In this document: positions 7,060 through 32,546 of the stretch, piece by piece
How positions within the stretch are numbered: the first letter of the stretch is position 1
Layout of the letters: each line of letters starts with the position of its first letter
Assembly: GCA_048595255.1 (NCBI GenBank)
Contig: JBMDWK010000025.1
Location: forward strand, 4,342 to 68,341
DNA: 64,000 nt
Direction: 5' to 3'
Source of the DNA: Sphingobacterium sp.
GTDB taxonomy: Bacteria > Bacteroidota > Bacteroidia > Sphingobacteriales > Sphingobacteriaceae
Program-made: the position numbers and the translations under genes
The notes under the pieces: generated by a model
The model's database searches: none
Told to the model about the DNA's origin: nothing
The model's input: only the letters and a program-made list of their open reading frames with translations

Positions 7060-7124
7060 GTTAAAATACGATTCTATGTAGTTAATATTTGAAGTATAAA
7101 GGCTTGATTTTGAATTTAAATTTG
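7060..7124 (+). promoter_or_regulatory. susC1 promoter: direct-repeat activator site plus -7 box
   Basis: GTTAAAAT (7060) and GTTAATAT (7081) 21 bp apart; TAAATTTG at 7117 matches Bacteroidota TAnnTTTG. Confidence 0.7.
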
Positions 7125-7161
7125 GTAGTTAAAACTACCAATCATTACTAAATTATTTAAA

Positions 7162-10100
7162 ATGAGAGCCATTTTACTATTTGTATCGCTTTTGTTTTCC
7201 ATACATTGTTTTGGACAGCAAATCAAAGGTATCGTGGTAGACCAAGACAACAAGCCCATCGCTGGTGCTACTGTTCGGAATCTACAGACATCGTTGAATA
7301 CACAAACCAATCTTAAGGGAGAATTCGTCTTGAACGGCATGATCAATCAAGAGTTTGAAGTGCATTACATTGGATACGAACGACTTCGGGTTAAAGTCAA
7401 TCAGGCCGAGATGCGTATCCAATTGTTAGAAACATTAAGCACATTGGATGAAGCCGTGGTCATTGGTTATCAAACTGTATCCCGAAAAAAAGCTACAGCT
7501 GCTATTTCAAGTATTTCGGGTAAAGAGTTAGAAAATATTCCGGCCGCAAGTTTCGACATGCTACTGCAAGGGAGGCTTGCAGGTGTGAATGTTCAAAACT
7601 TTACAGGAGCACCCGGCGCAGCACCAACTTTATCCGTAAGGGGGTCCTCTGCGGTGAGTACAGCTTATTCAGGAGATGATTATTACAATGTTATTTCTAG
7701 TCCTTTGTATGTCATTGATGGAGTTCCTCAGCCTACAGAACAGTTTGTCGGCCCTAACACCGGAACAGGGACCAACTATCTTGCAGGTTTGAATCCAAAT
7801 GATATTGAATCTGTAGACGTGCTGCGTGATGCTTCTGCTGCTGCAATCTATGGGTCTAGAGCTGCAAATGGTGTTGTAATGATTACGACAAAAAAAGGTA
7901 TTAATGGAGAACCAAGAGTACAATTAACAGCTTATTCGGGACTAACTCAACGGCCAGAACTTAGGGAGGTCACTATTGGAGCTGCCGAGAGACGGCAAAA
8001 ATTGGGCGTATTAAATAATCAGCTCTCTGAGAATGATTTAAGATACCTTCCTTATCTTTTGACGGACTCCTTAAATCCAGCTTTCAATGGAAATACGGAT
8101 TGGCAAGATTTATTTTATCAAAGAGGTGCAGTAAACAGCGTAAATATGGCTGTGACGGGTGGTAGTGGAACCACAAATTATCGTTTTAGTGGGGACTATT
8201 TTAATGAGGATGGAATTATTAAGGCTACAGGCTTTCAGCGGTTTAGTGGTCGTTTAAATTTAGCGACTAAAGCGTTGAAAGAACGTCTGATGATCAATCC
8301 TATAGTGGCCTACTCGTATTCAACCCGTGATAGAGGTAATGGAAGTTCTTCGAGCCCAATAGCTTTGGGAGCGGGTAATATGCCTTCTTCATTATTTAAT
8401 CTTTCGGACGAAAAGCGGGAATTCTTATTAGGTCAATACGATTCGAATTTGGATGTCAACGAGAATACAAATTTGAATGCTAACCTTAACTTGCATTTAC
8501 AGATTTTGCCGAATTTAAAATTTACGTCGCAATCATCTTATATCATCAACTCCGCAAAACGTGATTACAACCGTCCAGCAGCTTTGATGAGCGGTGCAGG
8601 AAACTATTCTTACGCATACGCGTATGGCGACAACCAATTGCGTATTTCGAATATATTATCCTACACCAATTCATTTGGGAAACACAATTTGGACGTTTTC
8701 ATAGGTCAAGAAGCGGAAAAGAATAGACTAAATACTGTCGGAGCTTGGGGAAGTCAAGGGGTCTCCGATCAGATTAAAGTGGTTAATGGTTTTTTGCAAA
8801 ATAATATCGGCGCTTCCTCTGATATTCAACGTTGGACCCAACTGTCCTTCTTAAGCCGTTTGACTTACGACTTTGATGATAAATATTTATTCTCAGGAGC
8901 CATTCGTGCAGATGGTTCTTCACGCTTTGGAGCCAATAATAAGTGGGGATATTTCCCTTCGGTGTCTGCTGGGTGGATACTTTCCGAAGAAGATTTCCTA
9001 AAAGATTCAGAATGGTTAAGCTTGCTGAAAATTCGAGGCAGTTACGGATTAACAGGAGCATTGCCGGGAAGTAATTATTTACAATATAACTTGTACAATG
9101 TAAATGCTGGGGCCTACCAAGGTAACGATAACTCAGCTTCATACAATGGACAAGTGGTTATTAGACCTAATTTCTATAATGGGGTAGCCCAAAGCAACTT
9201 AAGTTGGGAAAAAAATAAGCAATGGAATATCGGTACAGATATAAACCTTTATGGAGGTAAATTTTCATTTATGGTGGATATCTTCAACAAGGAAAATTAT
9301 GAAGGACTTTTTAATGTGGAATTACCGATAACTACAGGCTATGATATTGCTCAAACAAACTCTGTAGCCATTCGAAACTCAGGCTTAGATTTTCAATTCT
9401 CAGCAAGCATATTACCTAAATCCTCTACTGTAGATTGGCGCTCTAATTTTAATATTTCGTATGTCAAGAATCGGATTATGAGTCTTCCTAACGGTAACCG
9501 TGATTTGGTGATGAGCGGAGACCGATTTGATAAGTCTCATATTTTATCAGTGGGAAGCCCAGTTAATGCATTCTATTTGTATAAAACCTTAGGCGTATAT
9601 AGTACAATGGATGATATACCTGTAAACCCATATACCGGCGAAAGATATGGTAATTCTAATGGTCTATTTAATGCGGGTGATTTCTATTTTGCGGATTTAG
9701 ATGGCGATTATTTTATTGACGTTTTCAATAGTGGAATCAATCCTGATAAAATACCAATGGGAGATCCTAATTTCAAATGGGTAGGTGGTTGGAATAATAT
9801 TATTTCTTACAAAGACTTTTCGTTTACCTTTCATTTTACCTATGGCTTTGATCGAGACGTGTTGAATTTATTTGAGGCAGACCAATTTTCAAACTCTACA
9901 GCAGGAGACGCGGTTAGTAACTTTGTATATTATTCAACTCCAAATTTGGATAAACTAAATATATGGAGACAACCAGGTGATCAAGCAGAGTATGCTAAAT
10001 ATGACTTGGGAACATACCGTTATTATTATACTTCTGCACAATCATTCTTCTTAGAGAGGGGATCATATATCCGTTGGAAAAACTTTATTGTATCATACAA

Positions 10101-10293
10101 CTTACCTAAAAATACTATAAAGAAATTAGGCATATCAAACATGCGTGTCTTTGGATTGATGGATAATGTACTTATGTGGCAACAATCTAAAAAATTACCA
10201 GATGCAGAAGCGGTGAATCCTTATGGAGAGTACAATGGTGGGGGATATCCAATACCTCGTAAATACACAATAGGTTTAGAAATGTCACTATAA
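7162..10293 (+). CDS. susC: SusC/RagA TonB-dependent transporter (pair 1)
   Basis: N-terminal carboxypeptidase-regulatory-like domain, plug motifs 'PLYVIDGVP' and 'DASAAAIYGSRAANGVVMITTKKG', 'RADGSSRFG', 'LSWEK'; followed by a SusD-like gene. Confidence 0.95.
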   Translation: MRAILLFVSLLFSIHCFGQQIKGIVVDQDNKPIAGATVRNLQTSLNTQTNLKGEFVLNGMINQEFEVHYIGYERLRVKVNQAEMRIQLLETLSTLDEAVVIGYQTVSRKKATAAISSISGKELENIPAASFDMLLQGRLAGVNVQNFTGAPGAAPTLSVRGSSAVSTAYSGDDYYNVISSPLYVIDGVPQPTEQFVGPNTGTGTNYLAGLNPNDIESVDVLRDASAAAIYGSRAANGVVMITTKKGINGEPRVQLTAYSGLTQRPELREVTIGAAERRQKLGVLNNQLSENDLRYLPYLLTDSLNPAFNGNTDWQDLFYQRGAVNSVNMAVTGGSGTTNYRFSGDYFNEDGIIKATGFQRFSGRLNLATKALKERLMINPIVAYSYSTRDRGNGSSSSPIALGAGNMPSSLFNLSDEKREFLLGQYDSNLDVNENTNLNANLNLHLQILPNLKFTSQSSYIINSAKRDYNRPAALMSGAGNYSYAYAYGDNQLRISNILSYTNSFGKHNLDVFIGQEAEKNRLNTVGAWGSQGVSDQIKVVNGFLQNNIGASSDIQRWTQLSFLSRLTYDFDDKYLFSGAIRADGSSRFGANNKWGYFPSVSAGWILSEEDFLKDSEWLSLLKIRGSYGLTGALPGSNYLQYNLYNVNAGAYQGNDNSASYNGQVVIRPNFYNGVAQSNLSWEKNKQWNIGTDINLYGGKFSFMVDIFNKENYEGLFNVELPITTGYDIAQTNSVAIRNSGLDFQFSASILPKSSTVDWRSNFNISYVKNRIMSLPNGNRDLVMSGDRFDKSHILSVGSPVNAFYLYKTLGVYSTMDDIPVNPYTGERYGNSNGLFNAGDFYFADLDGDYFIDVFNSGINPDKIPMGDPNFKWVGGWNNIISYKDFSFTFHFTYGFDRDVLNLFEADQFSNSTAGDAVSNFVYYSTPNLDKLNIWRQPGDQAEYAKYDLGTYRYYYTSAQSFFLERGSYIRWKNFIVSYNLPKNTIKKLGISNMRVFGLMDNVLMWQQSKKLPDAEAVNPYGEYNGGGYPIPRKYTIGLEMSL

Positions 10294-10307
10294 AAATTTT
10301 TAGAATC

Positions 10308-11921
10308 ATGAATAAAGTAAATAAATCGATAATATCTTGTGCACTTGTTGCCTTAATATCACTATGTTCTTCATGTAAAGATTTTCTAGTGGAAGAGCCG
10401 GTGAACTCCACCTATTCAGATGCTTTTTGGAAAAAGTCGTCAGATTTGCGTAGTGCATTGGCTGGAAATTATGCCTTAATCCGTGATGTAATGAGTTCAG
10501 GAAACTGGAACGTCAGTCCGCGCTACTATATGTACGGTGATGCGGTAGCTAAAACTTATTTTACCATGCAATACACAGGTGATGGTCTAGAAGGAATTCA
10601 GAACGGAGATTATACATTTCAATATAATGTAGAAAGCTTAGGCGATTGGACTAAATATTACAAAGCCATCAGTATGAGTAATATTCTTATTAATAGAGTT
10701 CCTAAGGTAGACGCTACGCAATTCACTGATGTTGCTAACCCGGAGAAATTTAAGAATGAAATCTTAGGTGAAGCTTATTTCTTGAGAGCTTTAGCTTATT
10801 TTATGTTGGTCCGTGTATGGGGAGATGTACCTATTGTTACAGAAGAATATGAAGACCCTATTACCGCTCCTGAACTGCCACGTAGCCCTAAAGCTGATGT
10901 AATGGCACTGATAGAAGAAGATTGTATCAAAGCGAGAGATCTTTTGGAGTGGCAATACGCTAATATCGGCGATGCAAAAGTGACAGCAAATAAAGGATCA
11001 GTACATGCTTTACTAGCTCATTTATACCTGTGGAAAGCTACAATGATAAATGTACAAACGAATGCCGTAAATCTCGAAGACGTACAAAAAGCAGATGCCT
11101 CTATCGATCAAGTTATCCAAAGTGGCATGTATTCCCAAACCGATACAAGCAATTATTATAAAACATTTATTGGAAAGTCATCTGAAGGAATTTTTGAAAT
11201 AAGCATTGATGAAAATAACCGTGAAGGTAGTAATATGCATGTAGCGAATTTGTTTTTACGCACATCGCATATCCAGTACTATGGAACAAATTCAAGATGT
11301 TATGTGAATCCAGAATACCTTACAAACCATTTTTATAAGATTATCAAAGAATGGAATTGGTATTGGAACTATACGCTAAACGAATGGGAATGGAGGGAAG
11401 GCGAAGTGTATGCACTGGATGATAAGGATGTACGACTTAAAAAAAGTTTTACCGATATCGATACAGACCGCCCTACTTGTATAAAGTATAGTAACGTTTC
11501 CTATCGAAATACTTCTCAGAATCAAGATGCATATCTATCGAACAATATAATTGTTTTTCGTTTGAGTGACTTATTATTGCTAAAGGCGGAGATAGCTTTG
11601 TATCGTGGTGAAGTGGGTAAGGCCATTGACATTATAAACGGCTTCCGTAGACGTAATGGTGCTGATAGTTCTTCATACTTGGCTACCAATTTGTCTAAGG
11701 AAGATGTAATGTACGAATATGCTTTGGAGAGAGGTAAAGAAATGTATTTAGAAGGCCATTTGATGTATGATCTTTTAAGAACTCGTCAATACAATAATTT
11801 CGTAGGATGGTTATCGGAATCAAGATTCAAACAAGAGGGGTTTTATTGGCCTATCAATCCAGCCTTATTCAAAAACAATAACAAACTCGTCCAAACCAGT
11901 TACTGGAGAGGAAAGGTATAA
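10308..11921 (+). CDS. susD: SusD/RagB lipoprotein (pair 1)
   Basis: Lipobox SSC; 'GEAYFLRALAYFMLVRVWGDVP', 'RLSDLLLLKAE', 'ERGKEMYLEGH' SusD motifs. Confidence 0.93.
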   Translation: MNKVNKSIISCALVALISLCSSCKDFLVEEPVNSTYSDAFWKKSSDLRSALAGNYALIRDVMSSGNWNVSPRYYMYGDAVAKTYFTMQYTGDGLEGIQNGDYTFQYNVESLGDWTKYYKAISMSNILINRVPKVDATQFTDVANPEKFKNEILGEAYFLRALAYFMLVRVWGDVPIVTEEYEDPITAPELPRSPKADVMALIEEDCIKARDLLEWQYANIGDAKVTANKGSVHALLAHLYLWKATMINVQTNAVNLEDVQKADASIDQVIQSGMYSQTDTSNYYKTFIGKSSEGIFEISIDENNREGSNMHVANLFLRTSHIQYYGTNSRCYVNPEYLTNHFYKIIKEWNWYWNYTLNEWEWREGEVYALDDKDVRLKKSFTDIDTDRPTCIKYSNVSYRNTSQNQDAYLSNNIIVFRLSDLLLLKAEIALYRGEVGKAIDIINGFRRRNGADSSSYLATNLSKEDVMYEYALERGKEMYLEGHLMYDLLRTRQYNNFVGWLSESRFKQEGFYWPINPALFKNNNKLVQTSYWRGKV

Positions 11922-11939
11922 CCCATAATGATTCAATTT

Positions 11940-12623
11940 ATGAAAAAGGTATTAATTAAAGCTTTAGTATTATTCTTCATTTGTACTTCTTGCCAGAAAG
12001 ATGATTACAGAGTAGATGGAGGTACGAGCGATCCAAATGTGAACACTACGACTTATGACTTTTTGAAGAGTCATGGTAAGTTTGACTCATTAGTGCGCAT
12101 AATAGATCATGCAGGTCTTAAAGATATAGTCAATTCAAATGTGACCTTATTTGCAACGACAGACTACGGAGTACGTGATTATGTAGCAGCAAAAAAACAA
12201 GAAAAAATAGTGCAAGTAGGAGATGAGAACATTTCTTTCTCCATATCGGATATTCCAAAGCAGGAACTAAGGGATTCCATGATGATTTATCTCTTTGATG
12301 GTAAAATTACTCGTGAAACCTTGACTACAGATAATAAATTCTTTGGAAGTATGCTGGGCAACATCCCGAATGTGCGTTTTAATATCAAATTGAGAAGAAC
12401 TTATTCATATAGTTCATATTTGGACTATGTGGATTTCGTGAATTTCACGAAAGTAATCAAGACTCTGGATGCGGATGAGCCGGATTATTCTAAAATTCCG
12501 GATGCTGAACTTGATCGTTCTTTTGATTGTCAAACCTCCGGACTGATTTCCACTACAGGCGTAATTCATGTGCTGGACAATTCGCACCGATTGTTTTTTA
12601 ATAGAGGCAAGATGGCCCAATAG
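11940..12623 (+). CDS. Fasciclin-like surface lipoprotein
   Basis: Lipobox TSC from ATG 11940 (ORF track starts 11928). 'TTYDFL', 'TLFATTD' and 'GVIHVLD' match FAS1 H1/H2 motifs. Confidence 0.7.
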   Translation: MKKVLIKALVLFFICTSCQKDDYRVDGGTSDPNVNTTTYDFLKSHGKFDSLVRIIDHAGLKDIVNSNVTLFATTDYGVRDYVAAKKQEKIVQVGDENISFSISDIPKQELRDSMMIYLFDGKITRETLTTDNKFFGSMLGNIPNVRFNIKLRRTYSYSSYLDYVDFVNFTKVIKTLDADEPDYSKIPDAELDRSFDCQTSGLISTTGVIHVLDNSHRLFFNRGKMAQ

Positions 12624-12639
12624 TTTAAAATGAAAAGTT

Positions 12640-13629
12640 ATGAAAACCAATAGAATAAAAATATTAGCATTAGTAGGGTTAGGTCTTGCTGTGGGGGCGT
12701 GTTCCAAAATTGAGAATGGCTTTCAAAGCGATAATATCCGTTATAAATCCGATATTATATTTTGCAAAAGAGGAATGTCACTCACGATGTCTGATCGGAT
12801 TAATGCTGACGGAAGTACCCCTCCATATACTTTTGAAATGTTGAATCTTCGAAATGCAGAAACGGGTGAGCCAGCTCCTAGCGAATTTTTCAATGAATAT
12901 GAGATTATAAGTTTTAAGAATGGAATGGTATTCAATGCAGAGACCGATACCACTGTCGAACTGTTAAATCAGAAAAGAGAAGTGGTAAAAAAGCCACCTA
13001 TGGAATTTAACCCGGTGAGTGGGCAGTTAGTGTTTAATCGTGCTTCTGCAAATTTGCCTTTGGGTAAATATAAATTTGATGTTAATTTCACCAATTCACG
13101 TGGAACCAAATTATTTAAAGACTTAGCTACTATAGAAATTGTAGAACCCACTATTGACGATATGTTTGAAGTGACATATGAAGCTGCAACGGGCTCAAAT
13201 GCCTCCGAAACTTTTACTACCACTACTGCTCCGAAATTAAGCTGTACAAAAGTGAGTAACGAGGGGGCTCGAGTAATCTTGAAGATCGTAGACAAGGCTG
13301 GTAGACCTTTTAATCCAAAGGCTGGTGAAATCGTAAAACGTGGAGACCGCCCCATGTTTGAATCACATGTGAAGTTCAATCCTGTTATAACAACTGATAC
13401 AGCTCTGATTTGTGATTTTGAAGTTGCCCCCTTTCCTTTGACCAAGTTGGTGGATAAAGCGGGTACGGACTGGGGATATTTGAATTATTACCGCATCCCT
13501 ATGTCATTTGCGCAAGTAGACGGTTTACCTAATAACAATGTGAATCCCGTATTTGGTTTTCGGGTCAAGATGGAAGGCACTTACTTGGTGGAAGTCCGAT
13601 TACCAAGTGTAACGCGAGTTAATCGTTAA
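12640..13629 (+). CDS. DUF5007-like surface lipoprotein
   Basis: Lipobox GAC. Position after susC-susD-fasciclin is the arrangement I associate with DUF5007; family call is from recall, not a search. Confidence 0.55.
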   Translation: MKTNRIKILALVGLGLAVGACSKIENGFQSDNIRYKSDIIFCKRGMSLTMSDRINADGSTPPYTFEMLNLRNAETGEPAPSEFFNEYEIISFKNGMVFNAETDTTVELLNQKREVVKKPPMEFNPVSGQLVFNRASANLPLGKYKFDVNFTNSRGTKLFKDLATIEIVEPTIDDMFEVTYEAATGSNASETFTTTTAPKLSCTKVSNEGARVILKIVDKAGRPFNPKAGEIVKRGDRPMFESHVKFNPVITTDTALICDFEVAPFPLTKLVDKAGTDWGYLNYYRIPMSFAQVDGLPNNNVNPVFGFRVKMEGTYLVEVRLPSVTRVNR

Positions 13630-13642
13630 GTCTATAATATAC

Positions 13643-13672
13643 AGGTGGGAACTAGTTCCCACCTTTTCTTTT
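13643..13672 (+). terminator. Intrinsic terminator; perfect 22-bp palindrome
   Basis: AGGTGGGAACTAGTTCCCACCT (13643-13664) followed by TTTCTTTT. Confidence 0.8.
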
Positions 13673-13710
13673 ATGGCACAACCATATTTAAAGATAAATG
13701 TGGTTATGTT

Positions 13711-13775
13711 GTTAAAATCCTCATCATATTAGCTAAAATCCTTATGCCTGATCACCTATCATTTTTCTACTTTTA
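13711..13775 (+). promoter_or_regulatory. GH146 promoter: direct-repeat site plus degenerate -7 box
   Basis: GTTAAAAT (13711) and GCTAAAAT (13732); TACTTTTA at 13768, the same offsets as at susC1. Confidence 0.65.
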
Positions 13776-13818: not shown

Positions 13819-16800
13819 ATGATGGTACTTATAAAAATAATTTCTAAGATTTTGCTGACATTAATAATAGTGTGTTTTTCTAATATGGTGAAGGCACAAA
13901 GTGGTGACCAAATACTGGATGGTATTGGTGAGACAGGAATGGTTTCTCGCTACATCTTCAATGGTGATCTTAAAGATTGGTCGCGCAATAACTTACATGG
14001 AAATTATCAGGGTGGTCAGCCAAAATTTGTATCTGATCCAAAGTTCAATAAAGTATTATCTTTTGAAAATAAAAAGGAGGCAATATTATCCCTACCGAGC
14101 GACGTATTATTGAATATCGAATCTTTAAGTATTTCAGCATGGGTGTTCTCAAAATCCAATACAAAAGCACAGACTATTTTGGACTTTGGAAAGAATAATA
14201 ATTCTTTGCTTCACGTCTTTCAAGCGAAAGGTAAGCTATGTCTTTCTTTTGCGGGGAATGTCATAGAAGGTACTGCTTTACCCTTGAATAAATGGTCTCA
14301 TCTAGTTGTCGTGTTAGATGCTCCTGCAAAATCCATAGGCCTATATGCCGACAACAAGCTTTTGGTCGAAATGACCGATATAAATATAGACTTAACAAAA
14401 CTATTCGGTGCAAAATCTGTTGACGGTACTACGCTTTGGATAGGAAATTCGCCAGCTAAAAAAGAATCTTCTCTTCAGGCTTTGTTGCATGATTTTAGAA
14501 TATATCGTGTACCGCTCAGTAAGAGACAGATAGCTGGGATCTATAATAATGTGGTAAAAGGAGTGCGGCAAGATGAAGCACGTATGGGAAAGGTAGAAGA
14601 CAATCTTCAAGACTTTCCACTCACACAATCTCAGCTTTATAATAGTTATTTGGTCAATGTATCGGATGTGGAAGTAGAAACGCAAGTGGGCGAATTGCCA
14701 AGATTACCAAGCTATATACAAGGTGAATATAATGGAAATATGGTCGGACCTAAAGTGCGTGTAATCTGGCCCTCACCTATAGATAATGCTGAAGTATTAA
14801 AGGCTGGTCAATATACCATTACGGGTAAAATACCAGGTTCGTCTCTTATTCCTAAAGCTGTTGTTACTGTTAAATCAAAAGTTCAAGGTAATGCTCCGTC
14901 TATAAAATTGGCTGCTTTCCCACTCGAGCAAGTTTCTTTAAATAATGATGCGAATAGTCAGCAGACTAAATTTATTGAGAATAGAGACAAATTTTTAGGA
15001 ACATTAGCCAATACAGATCCTAATTCGTTTTTGTATATGTTTCGCAATGCCTTTGGACAAGCCCAACCCGCAGGTGCTAAACCGCTAGGAGTATGGGACA
15101 GCCAAGACACAAAATTGCGCGGACATGCTACTGGACATTATCTAACGGCATTGGCACAGGCTTATGCGAGCACAAAAGCAGATAAGAAACTAAATGAGAA
15201 TTTTTCGCAAAAGATGTCCTACATGGTGGATGTTTTATACCAATTAGCGCAACTTTCCGGTACAGCAAATAGCAAAGGGGAGTCCGTATCGGATCCTTTG
15301 GCTGTTCCGATAGGACCTAACAAGGAGACTTATGACTCAGATTTAAGTGTAGAAGGAATCCGTACAGATTATTGGAATTGGGGTAAAGGATTTATAAGTG
15401 CTTATCCACCAGACCAATTTATTATGTTGGAAAAAGGCGCTAAATATGGCGGTCAGAAAAATCAGGTTTGGGCTCCATATTATACATTACACAAGATTTT
15501 AGCAGGACTATTGGATGTATACATAGTAAGTGGGAATCAAAAAGCGTTGGATATCGCAGTAGGCATGACAGATTGGTTGCATCTGCGCTTGAATGCTCTA
15601 CCTAAAGAAACATTGATCGCCATGTGGAATACCTACATCGCAGGCGAATTTGGTGGTATGAATGAGACTTTAGCTCATCTCGCAGCTATTACTAAGGATA
15701 ATAAATATCTTAAAACAGCACAGCTTTTTGATAATATAGACTTGTTCTTCGGAAATGCAGAGCATACACATGGTCTTGCCAAAAATGTAGACTCATTCCG
15801 CGGATTGCATGCTAATCAACATATCCCTCAGATTGTAGGAAGTATTGAGATGTACCGTGTGTCGAATATGGAAGATTATTACAAAGTCGCAGATAACTTT
15901 TGGTACAAAGCGGTAAATGATTACATGTATAGTATTGGCGGTGTAGCTGGAGCACGCAACCCAGCCAATGCAGAGTGTTTTACAAAAGAGCCTTCTACGC
16001 TGTATGAGAATGGTTTTTCGGCAGGTGGACAGAACGAAACATGTGCAACTTATAATATGCTCAAATTAACTTCTAACCTATTCATGTATGATCAAAAGGC
16101 AGAGTATATGGATTATTACGAACGCGCTTTATATAATCATATTTTAGCATCGGTTGATGAGCATACACCAGCAAACACATACCATGTGCCACTCCGTCCA
16201 GGGTCGATCAAGCAATTCGGCAACCCAAATATGACAGGTTTTACCTGTTGTAATGGAACCGCAATAGAAAGTAATACGAAACTTCAAACAGCTATTTATA
16301 ATAAAAGTATAGACAATCAATCGTTGTATGTCAATTTATATATACCATCTACTTTGGATTGGAAAGAGCGTAATGTAATTATCGAACAGATTACTAATTT
16401 CCCTAAAGAAGATAATACAAGCTTGGTAGTAAAAGGAGAAGGTAATTTTACTATCAACCTGCGTCTACCACAATGGGCTAAAAAAGGCTTTACTGTAAAG
16501 ATTAATGGTAAGCAAGAAATAGTGAAAGCAGAAGTAGGCACCTATTTGGCTTTGCAACGACATTGGAAGAATGGGGATACTATTGAATTACAAATGCCTT
16601 TTGAATTCCATTTGGATCCTGTGATGGACCAGCAAAATATAGCGAGTTTGTTCTATGGCCCTATACTATTGGCTGCACAAGAGCCTGAGGCACGCGTAGA
16701 TTGGAGAAAAGTGACTTTGGATGCCAAAGATTTGAACAAGACGATCCAAGGAGATCCAAAAACTTTAGAGTTTACTATAGATGGGGTAAAATTCAAACCA

Positions 16801-16890: not shown

Positions 16891-16921
16891 ATCCCTCAGA
16901 ACAATTTCTGTTCTGAGGGAT
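16891..16921. terminator. Hairpin between convergent genes (bidirectional terminator)
   Basis: ATCCCTCAGAACA-atttc-TGTTCTGAGGGAT, a 13-bp perfect stem. Confidence 0.8.
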
Positions 16922-16931
16922 TTTAGTAGAG

Positions 16932-18329: not shown

Positions 18330-18331
18330 AT

Positions 18332-21129: not shown

Positions 21130-21193
21130 CAAATATGTTTATTATTCTGCTGCTGAATGACTAAATATTATCCCATTATACTTTATTTTTAGC
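21130..21193 (-). promoter_or_regulatory. DUF5695-pepP promoter: direct-repeat site plus degenerate -7 box
   Basis: On the minus strand: GCTAAAAA (21193-21186), GATAATAT (21172-21165), CATATTTG (21137-21130). Confidence 0.55.
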
Positions 21194-21268
21194 CGGTTGC
21201 ATTTTTTGTTGCTTATTTCTAGTTAGAATATTTAAATTTAATATAACTTCTAACCGAATTAATGAACC

Positions 21269-22153: not shown

Positions 22154-22209
22154 TGGTCGTTATTTGTCAATAGGTGGTTAGGGTTTGTTTTTATTAATAA
22201 ATACTTTTG
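22145..22209 (+). promoter_or_regulatory. Hyp operon promoter: degenerate direct-repeat site plus -7 box
   Basis: GTTAATTA (22145) and GTCAATAG (22166); TACTTTTG at 22202, the same 57-bp offset. Confidence 0.5.
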
Positions 22210-24598: not shown

Positions 24599-24603
24599 TT
24601 TAT

Positions 24604-25602
24604 ATGAAGAAGACCTTTACCTGTATCGATTCACATACATGTGGCTGTCCAGTTCGCTTAGTCGCGGGTGGTGGCCCATTTTTAAAAGGTAATAGCATGA
24701 TGGAGCGTAGGCTCCATTTTATGCAAGAATTCGATTGGATCCGCAAAGGCCTCATGTTTGAGCCACGTGGTCATGATATGATGAGCGGAAGTATTTTGTA
24801 TCCACCCCTTGATGAACTAAATGATGTGGGTGTTTTATATATTGAAACGAGTGGCTGTCTTCCAATGTGTGGTCATGGTACCATTGGGACGGTGACCATA
24901 GCCATAGAAGAAGGTCTGATTACTCCAAAAGTTCCTGGTAAACTTCGTTTGGAAACACCTGCGGGATTAGTATTGGTGGATTACAAGCAAGAAGGAGAAA
25001 AGGTTACTTCGGTAAAACTTACCAACGTAAAATCATTTCTTTATAAAGAGGCTTTGCATGTAGATTGTCCCGATTTAGGAGATATTTATGTGGATGTGGC
25101 TTATGGGGGCAATTTTTATGGTATAATCGATCCCCAAACTAACTTCTCAGACATTTCAGACTTTACAGCAGCAAAGCTCATTCATTATGGCAAAATTATT
25201 CGTCGTTTATTAAATGAAAAATATGAATTTATTCATCCAGAAGACGCTAATATTCATGGGTTGAGCCATATTCAATGGACAGGAAAACCTACAAAAAGCA
25301 ATTCTTCAGGACGTAACGCCGTACTTGTGGGTGAGAACGCATTGGATAGATCTCCATGTGGTACTGGTACCTCAGCACGTATGGCCCAATGGTTTGCTAA
25401 GGGCATGTTGAGAGCAGGAGAACAGTTTATACACGAAAGTTATATTGGTTCACAATTTACAGGTAAGATAGAAGGTGTGACGGAAGTTGCTGGACAGCAA
25501 GCTATTATACCATCGGTAGAAGGCTGGGCACGGATTACAGGATATAATACAATTTTTATAGACGATCAAGATCCTTACAAAGAAGGTTTTCAAGTTATTT
25601 AA
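24604..25602 (+). CDS. 4-hydroxyproline 2-epimerase (proline racemase family)
   Basis: Two catalytic Cys in 'MCGHGT' and 'DRSPCGTG'; 'EPRGHDMMSG'. Confidence 0.9.
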   Translation: MKKTFTCIDSHTCGCPVRLVAGGGPFLKGNSMMERRLHFMQEFDWIRKGLMFEPRGHDMMSGSILYPPLDELNDVGVLYIETSGCLPMCGHGTIGTVTIAIEEGLITPKVPGKLRLETPAGLVLVDYKQEGEKVTSVKLTNVKSFLYKEALHVDCPDLGDIYVDVAYGGNFYGIIDPQTNFSDISDFTAAKLIHYGKIIRRLLNEKYEFIHPEDANIHGLSHIQWTGKPTKSNSSGRNAVLVGENALDRSPCGTGTSARMAQWFAKGMLRAGEQFIHESYIGSQFTGKIEGVTEVAGQQAIIPSVEGWARITGYNTIFIDDQDPYKEGFQVI

Positions 25603-25628
25603 AAGCACAATAAGAATTTATTTAGAAG

Positions 25629-26882
25629 ATGAATAAAGGTACGGTACTCATAGTTGGAGCCGGGATAGCAGGATTATCTACAGCTTATTATTTAGTCAAT
25701 GATGGATGGAATGTGCATATCATTGAGCAAAATTCGTTAGATAATAATTGTTCGTATGGAAATGCCGGAATGATTGTACCCAGCCATTTTACGACTATGG
25801 CATCGCCAGGTATTGTGGCCCAAGGGATTCGTTGGATGTTTGACAAAAAAAGCCCGTTTTACGTTCGCCCTGCTTTAAATTGGAATTTGATGGATTGGGG
25901 TATGAAGTTTATCAAATATGCCAACAAGCGTCATGTGGATGCACATGTGGAATCTCTACGTGATCTGCATGTTTACAGCAGCAAATTATATGATTTATTG
26001 AATAATGATTCCGCATTCGATTTTGAATTAGAACAAAGTGGTATTATGATGCTTTACAAAACTAAGGCTGTGGAGCATGAAGAAATAGAATTAGCAAAGC
26101 GGGCACAGGACTTGGGTTTGGATGTAGAAATCAGAACAGCGGATGAAATGCAAGCATTGGAGCCAAACGTGAAGTTTGATGTATTGGGCGGTACATATTA
26201 TAAATGTGATGGAAAGCTTAATCCAATGAAATTGATGAACCAGTTAATTGGATATCTGAAAAATAGAGGAGTTCAATTTTATGAACATACAACGGTCAAA
26301 GGCTATAAGATTTCTGGTAGGCAAGTAAAAGAAATAGTCACAGATAAAGGTAATTTCCAAGGCGATGAATTTGTAATTGCTCCTGGTGCTAATTTGATGG
26401 AATTATCAAATAAACTAAAGCTAAAATTACCCTTAATGCCTGGCAAAGGATATTCATTTATGTACACACCTCCATCAGATATAAAATTGCAACATGCTGC
26501 TTTGCTATTGGAAGCAAAAGTTGCGGTGACACCTATGGATGGAAAAATAAGATTTGGCGGAACAATGGAACTCGGCTCACCAAATAATAAAATATATCAA
26601 AACCGGGTAGAAGGTATTGTCAGCTCAATTCCAAAATATCTTAAAAACCTCCATGTTGAGTACCCGAAGCAAGATATATGGTATGGATACAGACCCTGTA
26701 CTCCTGATGGTCTCCCTTACTTAGGAAGAACTGACAAATATGATAATATAACTATTAATGCTGGCGCAGGTATGATGGGATTAAGCCTAGGACCAGCAAT
26801 GGGTAAAGCTATAAGTGATATTCTTGCCCATAGAAAATTTAAAACAAATATAGCCTCTTTCACACCAGATCGGTTTGGATAA
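25629..26882 (+). CDS. FAD-dependent D-amino acid dehydrogenase, probable cis-4-hydroxy-D-proline dehydrogenase
   Basis: GAGIAG FAD motif, 'SYGNAG', 'PGKGYS', 'GYRPCTPDGLP'; operon context. Confidence 0.85.
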   Translation: MNKGTVLIVGAGIAGLSTAYYLVNDGWNVHIIEQNSLDNNCSYGNAGMIVPSHFTTMASPGIVAQGIRWMFDKKSPFYVRPALNWNLMDWGMKFIKYANKRHVDAHVESLRDLHVYSSKLYDLLNNDSAFDFELEQSGIMMLYKTKAVEHEEIELAKRAQDLGLDVEIRTADEMQALEPNVKFDVLGGTYYKCDGKLNPMKLMNQLIGYLKNRGVQFYEHTTVKGYKISGRQVKEIVTDKGNFQGDEFVIAPGANLMELSNKLKLKLPLMPGKGYSFMYTPPSDIKLQHAALLLEAKVAVTPMDGKIRFGGTMELGSPNNKIYQNRVEGIVSSIPKYLKNLHVEYPKQDIWYGYRPCTPDGLPYLGRTDKYDNITINAGAGMMGLSLGPAMGKAISDILAHRKFKTNIASFTPDRFG

Positions 26883-26911
26883 GTAGATATGAAAAACTAA
26901 TAACCTACATT

Positions 26912-28663
26912 ATGAACACTGCCAAAACAGCCAATTTAATTCTTACTTTGTTTCTTACCAACACTGTCCTAATGGCGCAAGACTTATATCAACACACTAC
27001 ACCTATTGAACCGCTTGTGATTCAATATGGCCATGATCAGCAAGCTATCAATTACTTTTATGGCCCTATGCCCAAAGGTTGGGGCTATCAACAAGCTGCA
27101 GAGTCACCTGAGCAGATTCAGCGTCTCATCACTTTGGATAATGAATATCTTCGAAAGTTAAAAGATTTCCCTTATTCTCAATTGAATACCAATGGGCAGG
27201 TTGATTATATTTTACTTGATCGTAAGGTGAAATTTGATTTGGAAGCCTTGCAAGAGCAGTTGAAAACCTATGAACGATTGAAAAGTTATGTGCCCTTTGA
27301 TCATATAATCTATGACTTCGAAAAACTTAGAAGACGAGGTACATCGATAAATGGAGAAGAAATAGCGGGAAATTTACAGCATGCCATTAAGCTAGTTAAA
27401 GAAGCTTCTGAAAAATTAAATAATGTAGATGCTATTCCATATGCAGATGTAGGTTTTCTAAAAGAGGTTATTAACTCCTTAAAGCTTCGGTTAACGAGTG
27501 CCTTTGATTTCTATAATGAATACGATCCCCTATTCACTTGGTGGGTACCGGCGCCCTACCAACAGTTATCGGAAGAATTGAACAATTACAGTAAATTGAT
27601 CACCGAAAAGAGCGATTGGAAAGTATTTAATGATGGAAGTAATATTGGAGGTGCTCCAATCGGAAAACAAGCATTCAACAAGCAATTAAAAGATGAAATG
27701 ATTGCTTACACCACAGATGATTTGCTTCGGTTAGCAGAACAAGAATTCGCATGGTGTGAAGCAGAACTTTTAAAAGCTTCACAGGAAATGGGCTTCGGCA
27801 AAGATTGGAAAGCAGCACAAGAAAAAGTTAAAAACACGTATGTTCCTGAAGGAAAGCAACCAGAGCTGATCCTAAAATTATATAACGATGCGCAAGAGTT
27901 TATCCGTAAGCATGATCTGATGGATATTCCAGCACTGGCTGATGAAACTTGGGGAATGATAATGATGACTGCAGAGCGGCAATTGGTGAATCCCTTTTTT
28001 ACAGGTGGACGTGAAATCAGTATTTCGTATCCAACGAATACCATGACACAAGAGCAAAAACTGATGAGTATGCGCGGGAATAATCCTTACTTTTCCCGTG
28101 GAACGGTACAGCATGAACTAAATCCTGGTCATCACTTACAATATTTCATGAATAGAAGATACAAACCTTACCGTGAAAGAGCTTTCAATACGCCATTCTG
28201 GACAGAGGGATGGACCTTGTACTGGGAGTTATTGATGTACGAAAAAGGTTTTGCAAACACGCCAGAAGAAAGAATCGGTATGTTGTTTTGGCGTATGCAC
28301 CGTTGTGCACGAATCACCTTTAGTATCAAATTCCATTTGGGAGAATGGACACCGCAGCAATGTATAGATTATTTGGTAGATAGGGTAGGTTTTGAGCGTG
28401 CGAATGCGCATGGAGAGGTTAAACGTTCATTTGAGGGCTCATATGGTCCATTATACCAATTGGCGTATTTGGTGGGAGGCTTACAAATGATGAGTATTAA
28501 AAAAGAAGTGGTAGATACCGGAAAAATGACTTACAAAGAATTCCATGATCGTGTGATTAAGGAAAATTATATGCCCTTAGAGATGTTACGCGCGATTTTG
28601 ACTGATCAAAAGCTAGCGCCCGATCATCAGACATCTTGGAAGTTTTATCAATTTAAAAGATAA
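26912..28663 (+). CDS. DUF885-family protein (putative zinc metallopeptidase)
   Basis: N-terminal signal-like segment; 'HELNPGHHLQ', 'EGWTLYWE', 'YQLAYLVG' motifs. Confidence 0.75.
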   Translation: MNTAKTANLILTLFLTNTVLMAQDLYQHTTPIEPLVIQYGHDQQAINYFYGPMPKGWGYQQAAESPEQIQRLITLDNEYLRKLKDFPYSQLNTNGQVDYILLDRKVKFDLEALQEQLKTYERLKSYVPFDHIIYDFEKLRRRGTSINGEEIAGNLQHAIKLVKEASEKLNNVDAIPYADVGFLKEVINSLKLRLTSAFDFYNEYDPLFTWWVPAPYQQLSEELNNYSKLITEKSDWKVFNDGSNIGGAPIGKQAFNKQLKDEMIAYTTDDLLRLAEQEFAWCEAELLKASQEMGFGKDWKAAQEKVKNTYVPEGKQPELILKLYNDAQEFIRKHDLMDIPALADETWGMIMMTAERQLVNPFFTGGREISISYPTNTMTQEQKLMSMRGNNPYFSRGTVQHELNPGHHLQYFMNRRYKPYRERAFNTPFWTEGWTLYWELLMYEKGFANTPEERIGMLFWRMHRCARITFSIKFHLGEWTPQQCIDYLVDRVGFERANAHGEVKRSFEGSYGPLYQLAYLVGGLQMMSIKKEVVDTGKMTYKEFHDRVIKENYMPLEMLRAILTDQKLAPDHQTSWKFYQFKR

Positions 28664-28668
28664 ACCAG

Positions 28669-30081
28669 ATGGAAGCGGAAAAACCAATCTTTAAAAAATC
28701 ACTGACGCTTTTGGATGCTACCATGCTGGTGGTGGGTAGCATGATTGGCTCAGGAATTTTTATTGTGACAGCGGATATTGTACGTAATACTGGTTCAGCA
28801 GGATGGATGATGATAATCTGGACAATAAGTGGTATTATGACTTTGATTGCCGCAATAACCTATGGAGAGCTGAGTGCGATGTTTCCAAAAGCAGGAGGTC
28901 AGTATGTCTATTTACGTGAAGCGTACAATCCTTTAGTGAGTTTTGTGTTTGGCTGGACATTTTTTGCAGTTATTCAGACAGCGACAATTGCTGCGGTGGG
29001 GGTAGCTTTTGCCAAATTTACAGCGTATCTGTTTCCCGTATTGGACGAAGACGTGATATTGCTCACGTTAGGGAGTTTCAAAATTTCTTCTGCTCAACTC
29101 TTATCTATAGGTATTATTTTGGTTTTGACATTTATTAATTCAAGAGGTGTCAATGCGGGGAAATGGGTGCAGACGAGTGTTACGTTGTTCAAATTATTAA
29201 GCTTGTCTTTGTTAGTATTATTTGGGTTCTTAGCCTTCAAGCATGAGGTTTGGAATCTGAATTGGCTATCCGCGGACACCTGGACTCTACGCAAACTAAA
29301 CCTTGATGGCTCATTTGAAAACTACAGTACATTCGCCGCTTTAGGCGCTATATCTGCTGCAATGGTAGGGGCACTTTTCAGCAGTGACTCTTGGCATTCT
29401 TCTTCAGCTGTTGCAGGAGAAATAAAGAATCCACAACGAAATATAGGATTAAGTCTGGCTTTAGGAACAATAATCGTAACCATAATTTATCTGCTCACTA
29501 ATCTGATGTACAGTACCGTGCTGGATCTCAATACGATGATCAATGCCCCGAAAGATCGTGTTGCGATGAGCGTAGCACAGGAAATTTTTGGTCCTGTGGG
29601 AATTACTATTCTGGCTATTATGATCATGATTAGCACATTTGGCTGTAACAATGGATTAATTATGGCAGGGGCTAGAGTGTATTATTCAATGGCTGAAGAT
29701 GGATTATTCTTCAAGAAGGCTAAAGGTTTGAATACGTATTCTGTTCCCGGGTATGCGTTATGGATACAAGGATTAGTTTCTTCGCTTTGGTGTTTAAGTG
29801 GTAAATATGGGGATTTACTCGATATGATAACATGTGTAGTGGTGGTATTCTATGTGTTAGCGATTTATGGTGTGATTCGTTTACGAAAGAAAAAACCTAA
29901 TTTAGAACGCCCTTATAAAGCTTTTGGGTATCCGATACTGCCTATACTTTATATAATCATGGGAATGGCTTTTATCATTTCCCTCATATTATTCAAACCA
30001 ACTTATACAATTTTGGGAGCCGTAATAGCACTATTGGGCATTCCCATATATTACCTTATAAAATCTAAGCAACATGATTAG
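28669..30081 (+). CDS. APC-family amino acid permease
   Basis: 'GSMIGSGIF', 'ELSAMFPKAGGQYVYL', about 12 hydrophobic segments. Confidence 0.92.
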   Translation: MEAEKPIFKKSLTLLDATMLVVGSMIGSGIFIVTADIVRNTGSAGWMMIIWTISGIMTLIAAITYGELSAMFPKAGGQYVYLREAYNPLVSFVFGWTFFAVIQTATIAAVGVAFAKFTAYLFPVLDEDVILLTLGSFKISSAQLLSIGIILVLTFINSRGVNAGKWVQTSVTLFKLLSLSLLVLFGFLAFKHEVWNLNWLSADTWTLRKLNLDGSFENYSTFAALGAISAAMVGALFSSDSWHSSSAVAGEIKNPQRNIGLSLALGTIIVTIIYLLTNLMYSTVLDLNTMINAPKDRVAMSVAQEIFGPVGITILAIMIMISTFGCNNGLIMAGARVYYSMAEDGLFFKKAKGLNTYSVPGYALWIQGLVSSLWCLSGKYGDLLDMITCVVVVFYVLAIYGVIRLRKKKPNLERPYKAFGYPILPILYIIMGMAFIISLILFKPTYTILGAVIALLGIPIYYLIKSKQHD

Positions 30082-32308
30082 AAAAATATTAATTATAATT
30101 CTGTTTATTGCAAATGTAGGGGCTGCTGCTGCTCAGGGAACGTTAGCAGATTATCAGCGTTCTAAAAAGTTTCGGGAGGCATTGGCTGATATTTATTACA
30201 TTCCCACTAATATAAAGTGGAATAAGGGCGGAAATGCTTTTTTATATGAACAGCGGACACCGCAAGGAAGAGAATTTGTATGGGTAGATGTTGCAGCACG
30301 CAAGAAGGAGGCCTTGTTTGACATTAGGTTGTTAGCCGAGCAGCTAGATAAGCAGTCTGGGCAACAGTTAGATATTAATTTGTTAAGTGGCTTTACAACC
30401 AAATTGTTGGGTAAAGACACGGTCGAGTTTACTTACAAAAATGCAATATGGCAATGGAATAGAATATCTTCAAACTTGAAGAAAGTTCGTGATGTAGAAG
30501 AAAATCCGAGGTCGGGAGGTTATTGGGGGCAGCGTCGGGATGATACCCAAGGCAGACCTGTGGTATCACCTGATAAAAAGAAAACAGCTTATATCAAAAA
30601 CCATAACTTGTATTTTGCTCTCGTGGATGATCCAAAATCGGAAAAGCAACTGACTTATGATGGCAATCCCGGCGAATATTATGCCGCCAATATACAATGG
30701 TCCCCCGATAGTAAAAAAATTGCTGGTTCGCGTGTGACCAAACAGGACGTGCGAATATTAACACTATTGGAATCTTCTCCAGCAGATCAATTACAGCCTA
30801 AACTGCAAACGCGTCATTATGCAAAACCTGGTGATGCATTGCCTCAATACTATCCCGTGATTTGTAATATCGAAACGAATAAGGTTTTTGCTATTGACAA
30901 GCAATTTGTAGACAATCAATTTTCCCTCGGATATGCTTCATGGCGGCAGGATAGTAAAAGTGTGACTTTTGAATTTAATAAACGTGGACATCAGCAATAT
31001 GCGATAGTGAAGCTGGACGCTGAAACGGGACAAAGTAAGTATATAATTAATGAGGTAAGCAACACGTTTATTGATTACAGTGGCAAGAAATTTAGATATG
31101 ATGTTAATGATGGAAAGGAAATCATTTGGTCATCAGAAAGAAATGGCTGGAATCATCTATACCTTTTTGACGGAGAATCTGGACAAATAATTAATCAGAT
31201 TACTGAAGGTGAATGGGTAGTAAGGAAAGTTGTAAATGTAGATGAGAAAAATCGTCAGATTATCTTTGAAGGGAGTGGACGTAATAAAAAGGAAGATCCT
31301 TATTTAATTCACTATTACAAAGTGGGTTTTGACGGTAAGAATTTGAAAGAACTTACCAAAGAAGAGGCAAACCATACTGCCTATTTCAATGAAGATTTCT
31401 CGTATTTTGTAAATCAATATTCCCTGATCAATAAAGTTCCTGTAACTGTATTACGGGATGGATCTGGAAAGGTGGTCATGGAGTTAGAAAGTGGAAATGT
31501 ATCTAAATTGCAAGACTTTGGCTGGAGAGCGCCTGAAGTGTTCACGGCAAAAAGCAGAGATAACAAATTTGATATCTGGGGAATTATCGTTCGTCCTACG
31601 AATTTCGACCCTTCCAAAAAATACCCAGTGATTGAGTATATTTATGCAGGGCCCCACAGTTCCTTTGTGCCTAAAACATTCAACGCAAACCCGAGTGGTA
31701 TGCAAGAACTTGCAGAATTAGGATTCATTGTGGTGCAAATAGATGGAATGGGGACATCCAATCGATCCAAAGAATTTCATAATGTAGCCTGGAAAAATTT
31801 GAAAGACGCAGGCTTTCCGGATCGTATAAAATGGATACAAGCAGCTGCTCAAAAGTATAATTACTTGGATATTGAGCGGGTAGGTATTTATGGTACTTCT
31901 GCGGGAGGCCAAAGCTCCACTGGTGGCGTATTATTCCATCCCGAATTTTATAAAGTGGCTGTATCTTCTTGTGGTTGTCATGATAATAGAATGGACAAAA
32001 TTTGGTGGAATGAACAGTGGATGGGCTGGCCTGTCGGTCCTGAATATGCTGAATGTTCTAATATTGAAAATGCTTACCGCTTACAAGGTAAATTGATGTT
32101 GATTGTGGGTGAATTGGATGATAATGTTGATCCATCATCTACGTATCAATTAACTAATGCATTGATCAAAGCAAACAAAGATCACGAACTGATTGTAGTA
32201 CCAGGAATGGGGCACTCTTCGGGAGGAGACTACGGAGAAAGAAAACGTCGCGACTTCTTCGTAAAAAATCTTCATGGTGTAACTCCCCCTGCTTGGAACA
32301 CATATTAA
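30074..32308 (+). CDS. S9B (DPP-IV-like) prolyl oligopeptidase, secreted/periplasmic
   Basis: Signal peptide, beta-propeller region, catalytic triad GTSAGG / LDDNV / GMGH. Confidence 0.9.
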   Translation: MIRKILIIILFIANVGAAAAQGTLADYQRSKKFREALADIYYIPTNIKWNKGGNAFLYEQRTPQGREFVWVDVAARKKEALFDIRLLAEQLDKQSGQQLDINLLSGFTTKLLGKDTVEFTYKNAIWQWNRISSNLKKVRDVEENPRSGGYWGQRRDDTQGRPVVSPDKKKTAYIKNHNLYFALVDDPKSEKQLTYDGNPGEYYAANIQWSPDSKKIAGSRVTKQDVRILTLLESSPADQLQPKLQTRHYAKPGDALPQYYPVICNIETNKVFAIDKQFVDNQFSLGYASWRQDSKSVTFEFNKRGHQQYAIVKLDAETGQSKYIINEVSNTFIDYSGKKFRYDVNDGKEIIWSSERNGWNHLYLFDGESGQIINQITEGEWVVRKVVNVDEKNRQIIFEGSGRNKKEDPYLIHYYKVGFDGKNLKELTKEEANHTAYFNEDFSYFVNQYSLINKVPVTVLRDGSGKVVMELESGNVSKLQDFGWRAPEVFTAKSRDNKFDIWGIIVRPTNFDPSKKYPVIEYIYAGPHSSFVPKTFNANPSGMQELAELGFIVVQIDGMGTSNRSKEFHNVAWKNLKDAGFPDRIKWIQAAAQKYNYLDIERVGIYGTSAGGQSSTGGVLFHPEFYKVAVSSCGCHDNRMDKIWWNEQWMGWPVGPEYAECSNIENAYRLQGKLMLIVGELDDNVDPSSTYQLTNALIKANKDHELIVVPGMGHSSGGDYGERKRRDFFVKNLHGVTPPAWNTY

Positions 32309-32323
32309 AAAACAGATTTTATA

Positions 32324-32354
32324 AAAGAAAGATTCCACATAGGAATCTTTTTTT
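32324..32354 (+). terminator. Intrinsic terminator ending the Hyp operon
   Basis: AAAGATTCC-acata-GGAATCTTT followed by Ts. Confidence 0.8.
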
Positions 32355-32481
32355 GTTGTAGATCAGTAAATATGTGCAAAATGTATCTATATATACATGA
32401 CGATTTCATGGTGTAATACACTGCGTTTCTTTTTAAGAAGTAAGTGTTGCGTGCCTATGTTTATCTTATTGTACCAAAAAA

Positions 32482-32546
32482 GTTAAAATGATGCTGTGAT
32501 AGGATAAAATAATTGTAAAAATGACACGTAATCGTGGGTAATTTTA
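32482..32546 (+). promoter_or_regulatory. susC2 promoter: direct-repeat site plus degenerate -7 box
   Basis: GTTAAAAT (32482) and GATAAAAT (32503); TAATTTTA at 32539. Confidence 0.65.

Follow-up and report, generated by a model that had tools for sequence, protein, structure and literature searches.

The first 37 kb of the soil Sphingobacterium sp. DNA analyzed here, a 64,000-nucleotide stretch of contig JBMDWK010000025.1 (hereafter the window), form a single functionally coherent locus in which five promoters carry the same two-part direct-repeat element. The GC content of the window is 38%, and the proteins that it encodes assign it to Sphingobacterium. Two susC/susD pairs (7162-11921 and 32571-37141), together with two glycoside hydrolase family 43 (GH43) genes, one GH2 gene, and GH127/146-like genes, mark the locus as a polysaccharide utilization locus (PUL). 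Pfam searches of the genes of 1-37 kb found no hybrid two-component system (HTCS), SusR-like, or extracytoplasmic function (ECF) sigma/anti-sigma genes, and the sole regulator gene in this region encodes a cupin-AraC protein.

From its left edge, the window begins with the C-terminal end of a GH127/146-type protein (2-538; DUF4986 and DUF6805, as at the C-terminus of such proteins), followed by the two GH43 genes and the GH2 gene, the first full product being a GH43 enzyme (560-2491); this first glycosidase operon extends from the left edge to 6938. The next transcription unit, susC1-susD1-hypothetical-DUF5007-like (7162-13629, plus strand), was delimited with Pfam and a terminator scan, and has terminator-like hairpins before it (6970-6998) and after it (13643-13664). 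A large GH127/146-like beta-L-arabinofuranosidase gene with LamG and Big_4 domains (13819-16854, plus strand; GH146 below) is a unit of its own and ends at a hairpin (16891-16921) that it has in common with the convergent M24 gene. On the minus strand, genes for a DUF5695 protein (18332-21043) and an M24 Xaa-Pro aminopeptidase (16932-18329), with 2 bp between them, form one operon (16932-21043). There follow, on the plus strand, the regulator gene (21269-22153, 294 amino acids), the hydroxyproline (Hyp) operon (22237-32308, again from Pfam and the terminator scan) with its hairpin (32328-32350), and the susC2-susD2 pair (32571-37141), identified as open reading frames (ORFs) with orthologues that contain the SusC and SusD Pfam families. 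The four hairpins delimit the units and lie just upstream of three of the proposed promoters. A scan of the window for sigma-70 consensus promoters, a model unsuited to Bacteroidota, did no better than chance, and the terminator matches alone were used.

The products of the Hyp operon are a dihydrodipicolinate synthase (DHDPS)-like enzyme, an aldehyde dehydrogenase, a 4-hydroxyproline epimerase, a DAO-type FAD oxidoreductase, a DUF885 protein, an amino-acid permease, and a DPP-IV/S9 peptidase. The epimerase matches the NCBIfam equivalog NF010578 with 572.8 bits against a cut-off of 376, and the DAO, DHDPS, and Aldedh families are present and adjacent. Their putative roles as D-hydroxyproline dehydrogenase/oxidase, Pyr4H2C deaminase, and alpha-ketoglutarate semialdehyde dehydrogenase were assigned by family and gene order, with no specific equivalog model reaching its cut-off. 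The mechanical ORF call starts the first gene of the operon at a TTG (22225), but an in-frame ATG at 22237, 27 nt past the -7 box described below, is the likelier start.

Each of the five promoters contains two 8-bp half-sites in direct repeat, followed at a set distance by a -7 box. Upstream of susC1 (7060-7124, plus strand), the half-sites GTTAAAAT (7060-7067) and GTTAATAT (7081-7088) flank the spacer ACGATTCTATGTA, and a 28-bp gap separates the second from the -7 box TAAATTTG (7117-7124), with the start codon at 7162. The GH146 promoter (13711-13775, plus strand) has GTTAAAAT (13711-13718), the spacer CCTCATCATATTA, GCTAAAAT (13732-13739), the same 28-bp gap, and the -7 box TACTTTTA (13768-13775), the start codon being at 13819. 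Upstream of susC2 (32482-32546, plus strand), GTTAAAAT (32482-32489), the spacer GATGCTGTGATAG, and GATAAAAT (32503-32510) are again followed after 28 bp by a -7 box, TAATTTTA (32539-32546), with the start codon at 32571. The site of the Hyp operon (22145-22209, plus strand) consists of GTTAATTA (22145-22152), which overlaps the stop codon of the araC-type gene, the spacer ATGGTCGTTATTT, GTCAATAG (22166-22173), and, 28 bp further on, the -7 box TACTTTTG (22202-22209); a conserved GGTTAG lies at 22176-22181, and the probable start is the ATG at 22237. Finally, the promoter shared by DUF5695 and M24 (21130-21193, minus strand) has GCTAAAAA (21193-21186), the spacer TAAAGTATAATGG, GATAATAT (21172-21165), and the -7 box CATATTTG (21137-21130) after a gap of 27 bp.

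All 15 of these words had been listed in a first-pass annotation of this DNA, and reading of the sequence together with a regular-expression scan found each of them where it had been placed. Its account of the geometry was also accurate: the half-sites repeat with a 21-bp period throughout, and, counted from the first G, the -7 box follows at 57 bp in susC1, GH146, the Hyp operon, and susC2 but at 56 bp in DUF5695. An AT occupies spacer positions 10-11 in four of the five promoters (not in susC1). The overall operator consensus is GTTAAAAT-N13-GnTAAAAT, with half-site 2 ending ~28 bp upstream of the -7 box, and weaker conservation is seen after each core (..G..TA) and before half-site 2 (tATT, including the AT at 10-11). 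Primary-sigma promoters of Bacteroidota, as known from Bacteroides and Flavobacterium, have the consensus -33 TTTG / -7 TAnnTTTG. Two of the -7 boxes, TAAATTTG and TACTTTTG, agree exactly with TAnnTTTG, TACTTTTA and TAATTTTA are off in the last base, and CATATTTG is off in the first.

The loosest regular expression that covers all ten half-sites, run over the whole 64 kb on both strands, returned five pairs at spacing 21, which are exactly the five sites above, and zero to three pairs at each of the other spacings from 8 to 44. As this expression was set after the sites had been seen, an independent model was built from other genomes. Unseeded expectation-maximization (EM) on 25 non-redundant AraC-DHDPS intergenic regions of other genomes yielded a 32-bp motif, GTTAAaATntGgTaAgtATTGATTAAAACncG, in short GTTAAaAT...ATTGATTAAAAC. 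The 32-bp matrix singles out only the Hyp site in the window and was therefore replaced by a half-site-only model with a spacing control, namely an 8-bp matrix made of the first eight columns (GTTAAAAT) of the EM motif, trained only on other genomes and used with a pair threshold of at least 12 bits. Over the whole window and both strands, the half-site matrix found four pairs at spacing 21, all of them among the five sites and none in coding DNA: susC1 (24.7 bits, the best in the window), GH146 (21.4), susC2 (18.8), and DUF5695 (12.1). All four have a -7-like box at 56-57, and by this matrix the composite site of pair plus box is present in 4 of the 43 gene-upstream regions of the window, those of susC1, GH146, DUF5695, and susC2 only. 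The Hyp-operon site has degenerate half-sites and falls below the threshold of the half-site matrix, yet it is the window's top match of the 32-bp motif (24.0 bits). Shuffling the 4.3 kb of intergenic DNA (GC 31.7%) 1000 times with dinucleotides preserved gave 0.18 pairs on average and never more than 3, compared with 4 pairs in the window, and a pair with a -7 box at 56-58 appeared in none of the 1000 shuffles.

Conservation was assessed in three sets of loci: 80 that surround an orthologue or paralogue of the regulator, eight that surround a SusC2 orthologue, and 76 from metagenomes that surround a relative of SusC1. The intergenic DNA of the 80 loci holds 102 pairs at spacing 21, whereas other spacings have 5-44 and show small bumps at 10-11 and 31-32; coding DNA is flat. 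Outside the window, a -7-like box stands at offset 57 in 33 of 77 non-redundant pairs, while every other offset from 30 to 79 accounts for at most two. An operator with identical geometry recurs before orthologues of all five promoters, and the spacers diverge. Twenty-one of 29 non-redundant metagenomic SusC1-orthologue promoters have a pair of at least 12 bits, 16 of the 29 also having a box at 56-58, and six of seven non-redundant GH146 orthologous promoters keep both half-sites and a box at 57 with spacers quite unlike that of the window. The composite site is present in 10 of 19 non-redundant DUF5695 promoters (box at 57 in nine and at 56 in one), a Hyp-type operator of at least 15 bits in 30 of 38 non-redundant DHDPS promoters, and a pair with a -7-like box at 57 upstream of six of the eight SusC2 orthologues (L081-L086, 87-68% protein identity); in the other two (L087 and L088) this arrangement is not kept. 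The operator also precedes, elsewhere, genes for GH127 (three cases), GH27 alpha-galactosidase, GH97, GH2, prolidase, and further SusC-like receptors.

The site is specific to these promoters. None of 28 promoters of unrelated SusC paralogues has the composite site, and their median best pair scores -3.4 bits. The regions upstream of the operon-internal genes Aldh, HypE, DUF885, and DPP4 in relatives contain 0 composite sites, and at most one of each reaches 15 bits with the 32-bp motif. The window provides an internal negative control as well, since a second, unrelated susC/susD locus at 48920-63338, which comprises susC at 52022, a multihaem cytochrome c gene at 50691, and a gene for a LacI-family regulator at 48920-49906, is free of such operators.

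The regulator is, judged by its domains, a member of the AraC/XylS family. Its C-terminal DNA-binding domain is of the HTH_18/HTH_AraC kind with two helix-turn-helix (HTH) motifs (PF12833, 70.1 bits against a cut-off of 33.6; PF00165, 50.0 against 26.6; residues 200-278), and an N-terminal cupin is recognized at residues 26-82 by PF07883 (29.2 bits, cut-off 27.2) and PF02311 AraC_binding (24.5, cut-off 21.1), both narrow passes. The named NCBIfam equivalogs (AraC, RhaS, RhaR, and others) all score far under cut-off: the RhaS model aligns over residues 16-277 with 74 bits against 288, and the AraC model covers the DNA-binding domain only, with 64 bits against 208. The closest solved structures in the PDB are the DNA-binding domains of an HTCS, AraC, GadX, ToxT, and MarA. 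More than 1200 homologues of the regulator were found; the S. litopenaei protein is 92% identical to it and the S. bovistauri protein 85%. Among orthologues 46-85% identical overall the DNA-binding domain is almost invariant, which fits the conserved GTTAAAAT core of the putative operators. Across the 80 loci, the regulator gene is found with Hyp genes, DUF5695, M24 and DPP-IV peptidases, GH127/146 genes, and SusC/D pairs, and this synteny extends over Sphingobacterium, Olivibacter, Mucilaginibacter, Pedobacter, Puia, and Chitinophaga.

Among 38 non-redundant composite sites, no TTG or TTTG peak was found at offsets 24-46, where a -33 TTTG would lie ~17-23 bp upstream of the -7 box, and this absence fits activator-dependent promoters. 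The 57-bp distance would put the promoter-proximal half-site where the -33 element is expected. The conservation pattern suggests half-sites ~17 bp long, as expected for a domain with two HTH motifs. The reading of the repeats as AraC-type direct repeats, already made in the first-pass annotation, is supported by the enrichment at spacing 21 and by the direct repeats averaging 21 bp apart that comparative genomics predicts as operators of Bacteroides HTCS AraC-type domains, before susC/susD and glycosidase genes (PMC3878776).

We suggest that the five sites are probably the operators of one conserved regulon for the use of extensin-type glycoproteins, under the control of the local cupin-AraC activator. 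The same two-part site, at the same promoter distance and kept in relatives, argues that one AraC-type regulator probably switches the sugar-stripping and the hydroxyproline-burning genes together. In the proposed mechanism, a dimer of the regulator encoded at 21269-22153 would bind the two direct-repeat half-sites, which the 21-bp period would place on the same face of the helix, the -7 box of Bacteroidota (TAnnTTTG) following 57 bp after the first G. Because these promoters lack a conserved -33 TTTG, RNA polymerase would need the regulator to be bound, and activation would be of class II, by analogy with AraC at araI1-I2. The units so controlled would be susC1-susD1 with the two small downstream genes; the GH127/146 beta-L-arabinofuranosidase; DUF5695 with the Xaa-Pro aminopeptidase; the hydroxyproline catabolic, uptake, and DPP-IV operon; and susC2-susD2, together making up a system for hydroxyproline-rich plant glycoproteins such as extensins. 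Sites, geometry, conservation, specificity, and synteny with the regulator gene are all observed in the sequences; for binding by the regulator, activation, and a signal that would be hydroxyproline, a Hyp-arabinoside, or a Hyp-peptide, we infer the step from them. Our guess for the effector, made from gene context, is hydroxyproline or a small Hyp conjugate.

The gene content points to extensin-type hydroxyproline-rich glycoproteins as the substrate. The enzymes linked to the operator elsewhere match Hyp-O-arabinosides, Ser-O-galactose, and a proline/Hyp-rich backbone, and fit the degradation of extensin. The first-pass annotation had proposed that the glycan and Hyp modules form one regulon under a single activator; the shared conserved operator, the lone local regulator, and the synteny support the regulon, but the word 'single' goes further than the data, as some relatives have two paralogous regulators.

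Several observations weigh against the proposed interpretation. With the 32-bp Hyp-type matrix, other sites of the window score 6.1, 0.4, and -1.3 bits, and that of DUF5695 is outside the top 25; as the shuffle maximum for this matrix averages 8.2 bits, the other four window sites are not significant by it alone. The half-sites are short and AT-rich, and those of DUF5695 (12.1 bits) and the Hyp operon (below threshold) are weak by the half-site matrix. The first glycosidase operon has no operator inside the window, between the left edge and 6938, and the SusC2 orthologues in Olivibacter and Parapedobacter lack the site. Finally, coexisting paralogues of the regulator have near-identical operators, so that specificity cannot be read from the 8-bp core.

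This last observation leads to the strongest alternative, namely that the sites are genuine operators whose reader, in whole or in part, is a different AraC-type regulator with its gene outside the locus, perhaps a paralogue; the locus would then not form a regulon of one regulator. Two paralogues, ~52-59% and 45% identical to the window protein, are present in each of S. zeae, Sphingobacterium sp. HMA12, and CZ-UAM. One is next to susC/susD/DUF5007 or the Hyp operon, the other is next to M24/DPP4 and another susC, and both paralogue groups have GTTAAnAT-N13-GTnAAnAT-N28-box operators. However, the 37-kb locus contains one regulator gene only, amid the five sites, and the closest relatives (80-92% identity) keep this single-gene arrangement, and we regard a second reader of the sites as unlikely, though it deserves to be kept in mind.

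A less probable alternative, to which we give little weight, is that the operators do belong to the local regulator but that it represses transcription or plays a dual role. AraC-family proteins are capable of repression, and upstream of the araC-type gene in one clade, two half-sites spaced by 11 bp stand right against a -7-like box, which would suit occlusion better. The target sites, in contrast, lie wholly upstream of the -7 box, in fixed helical phase and in place of the missing -33 element, which is the classical position of an activator, and a repressor would not need exact 57-bp phasing. The weakest alternative sees in the repeats no regulator site but AT-rich words that arose by chance, or else some general feature of promoters that RNA polymerase reads, such as an UP-like element. 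This view could draw on the A/T-rich nature of the 8-mers in DNA of 32% GC and on the scores of the other sites within shuffle range by the full Hyp-type matrix, but it is rejected as very improbable by the enrichment at spacing 21 only, the absence of the composite site from the shuffles, from the 28 unrelated SusC promoters, and from any other promoter of the window, and the retention of the half-sites while the adjoining DNA diverges. The same shuffles, SusC controls, and spacing scan answer the test set in the first-pass annotation, in that the motif is not equally frequent in unrelated AT-rich intergenic DNA.

The class of mechanism proposed here, activation by the local cupin-AraC regulator, is textbook, and it is the regulon itself that appears to be new within that class. 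Escherichia coli AraC acting at araI1-araI2 (pBAD), like the regulator described here, combines a cupin sensing and dimerization domain with a dual-HTH domain. At araI1-araI2, class-II activation works through a pair of direct-repeat half-sites with a period of 21 bp, of which the proximal extends into the -35 region. By analogy, the three-element architecture found here (repeats on the same face, the proximal one ~28 bp before the -7 box, and no -33 TTG) would be that of a class-II AraC-type activator site. The two systems differ in that the regulator here is not an orthologue of AraC (64 versus 208 bits with the AraC model) and its half-site sequence is different, the host promoter is of the -33/-7 Bacteroidota type, and there is no sign of a distal looping site.

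Further comparisons set the system apart from known regulators of PULs and of hydroxyproline use. An HTCS sits in the membrane and combines a periplasmic sensor with a kinase and a receiver domain, whereas the regulator here is a soluble cupin-HTH protein of 294 amino acids, so that its signal must be sensed in the cytoplasm. In Pseudomonas, the AraC-family protein LhpR (PP_4602) activates hydroxyproline catabolic genes and has a PAS domain instead of a cupin at its N-terminus (bioRxiv 10.1101/2023.07.21.550116); orthology to LhpR was rejected, as the protein described here gave no PAS match and has a cupin/AraC_binding domain instead. LhpR belongs to a different phylum and is associated with catabolic genes only, without glycan or peptide uptake modules. 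HypR of Streptomyces coelicolor is a GntR-type regulator of hydroxyproline utilization genes (PMC6608401), and thus of another family; its targets are not known to include glycan-uptake or glycosidase modules. The hypBA clusters of Bifidobacterium longum and Xanthomonas, which deal with Hyp-linked beta-L-arabinooligosaccharides, are described in abstract as using GH127/GH146/GH43-type enzymes to strip arabinofuranosides from extensin-type glycoproteins (PMC7263609, PMC10850190, PMC6085000). Import in B. longum is, from the same abstracts, by an ABC transporter and not by SusC/D (PMC7263609), and the abstracts make no mention of Hyp catabolism, prolyl peptidases, or an AraC operator (PMC7263609, PMC10850190, PMC6085000). 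Our literature search, which is no proof that none exists, found no description of a Bacteroidota hydroxyproline/extensin regulon, of this operator, or of the function of DUF5695.

A broader proposal is attractive, but we hold it only tentatively, at somewhat less than even chances. According to it, the soluble cupin-AraC regulator, conserved in Sphingobacteriales and Chitinophagales, would sense one cytoplasmic breakdown product (hydroxyproline, a Hyp-arabinoside, or a Hyp-peptide) and, through a rigid 21-bp/57-bp module, would co-activate SusC/D import across the outer membrane together with beta-L-arabinofuranosidases, prolyl peptidases, and hydroxyproline catabolism. The result would be a regulon of soil and rhizosphere Bacteroidota dedicated to extensin utilization, split in some species between two paralogous regulators whose operators are nearly the same. 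Roots and litter are rich in plant extensins and related hydroxyproline-rich glycoproteins, whose consumption by soil Bacteroidota is essentially undescribed. The operator offers a handle, at the sequence level, with which glycan import, deglycosylation, proteolysis, and amino-acid catabolism can be linked and tested as one unit, and it points to missing steps that DUF5695, DUF885, and the DUF5007-like protein are candidates to fill; if the proposal is true, roles could be assigned to DUF5695 and DUF885. The locus would then be a PUL under a cytoplasmic AraC-type sensor in place of the usual periplasm-sensing systems, and the rigid 57-bp geometry, conserved across two orders, could serve as a compact inducible promoter module for Bacteroidota genetics.

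Some additional features of the regulator and its gene were seen in the relatives. In one Sphingobacterium clade (L016 and L019-L024), the half-site pair with 11-bp spacing and its adjoining -7-like box (GTTAATATtnnGTTAATATcgTAACTTTC) are located ~85-95 nt upstream of the regulator gene, and weak equivalents are present at 21222 and 21237 of the window. Their arrangement suggests possible autoregulation by occlusion, and it explains the bump at 10-11 bp in the spacing scan. In three pairs of loci (L004/L071, L013/L077, and L006/L046), two paralogous regulators coexist in the same genome with almost the same operators, which looks like subfunctionalization of the regulon and may be a source of cross-talk.

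Other observations concern the individual promoters. In S. bovisgrunnientis, S. cavernae, and S. bovistauri (L002, L003, and L035), the GH146 promoter directly follows the GH2 gene, indicating that the susC1-susD1-DUF5007-like unit represents an insertion or a loss at this position; SusC1 orthologues located at other places still have the operator. One clade of the metagenomic SusC1-orthologue promoters (L104, L107, L109, L112-L117, and L129) has extra half-site-like words (GTTAA, GGTAAAAA) within the 28-bp gap, at ~+11 and ~+22 from half-site 2 and before the -7 box, and these words could be additional binding sites or the mark of a variant promoter in this clade. Between half-site 2 and the -7 box of susC2, the window contains a palindrome, TGT-N7-ACA (TTGTAAAAATGACA, 32513-32526), that is kept in SusC2 orthologues; the loci concerned are L081, L082, L084, L085, L086, L054, L057, and L088, besides window 50318-50332. 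In its perfect form, TTGTCAAATTGACAA, the palindrome is present at window 50318, in two Puia loci, and in S. corticis, where it lies between susC2 and an araB-like kinase gene. The TGT-N7-ACA palindrome may be the site of a second regulator that acts on susC2.

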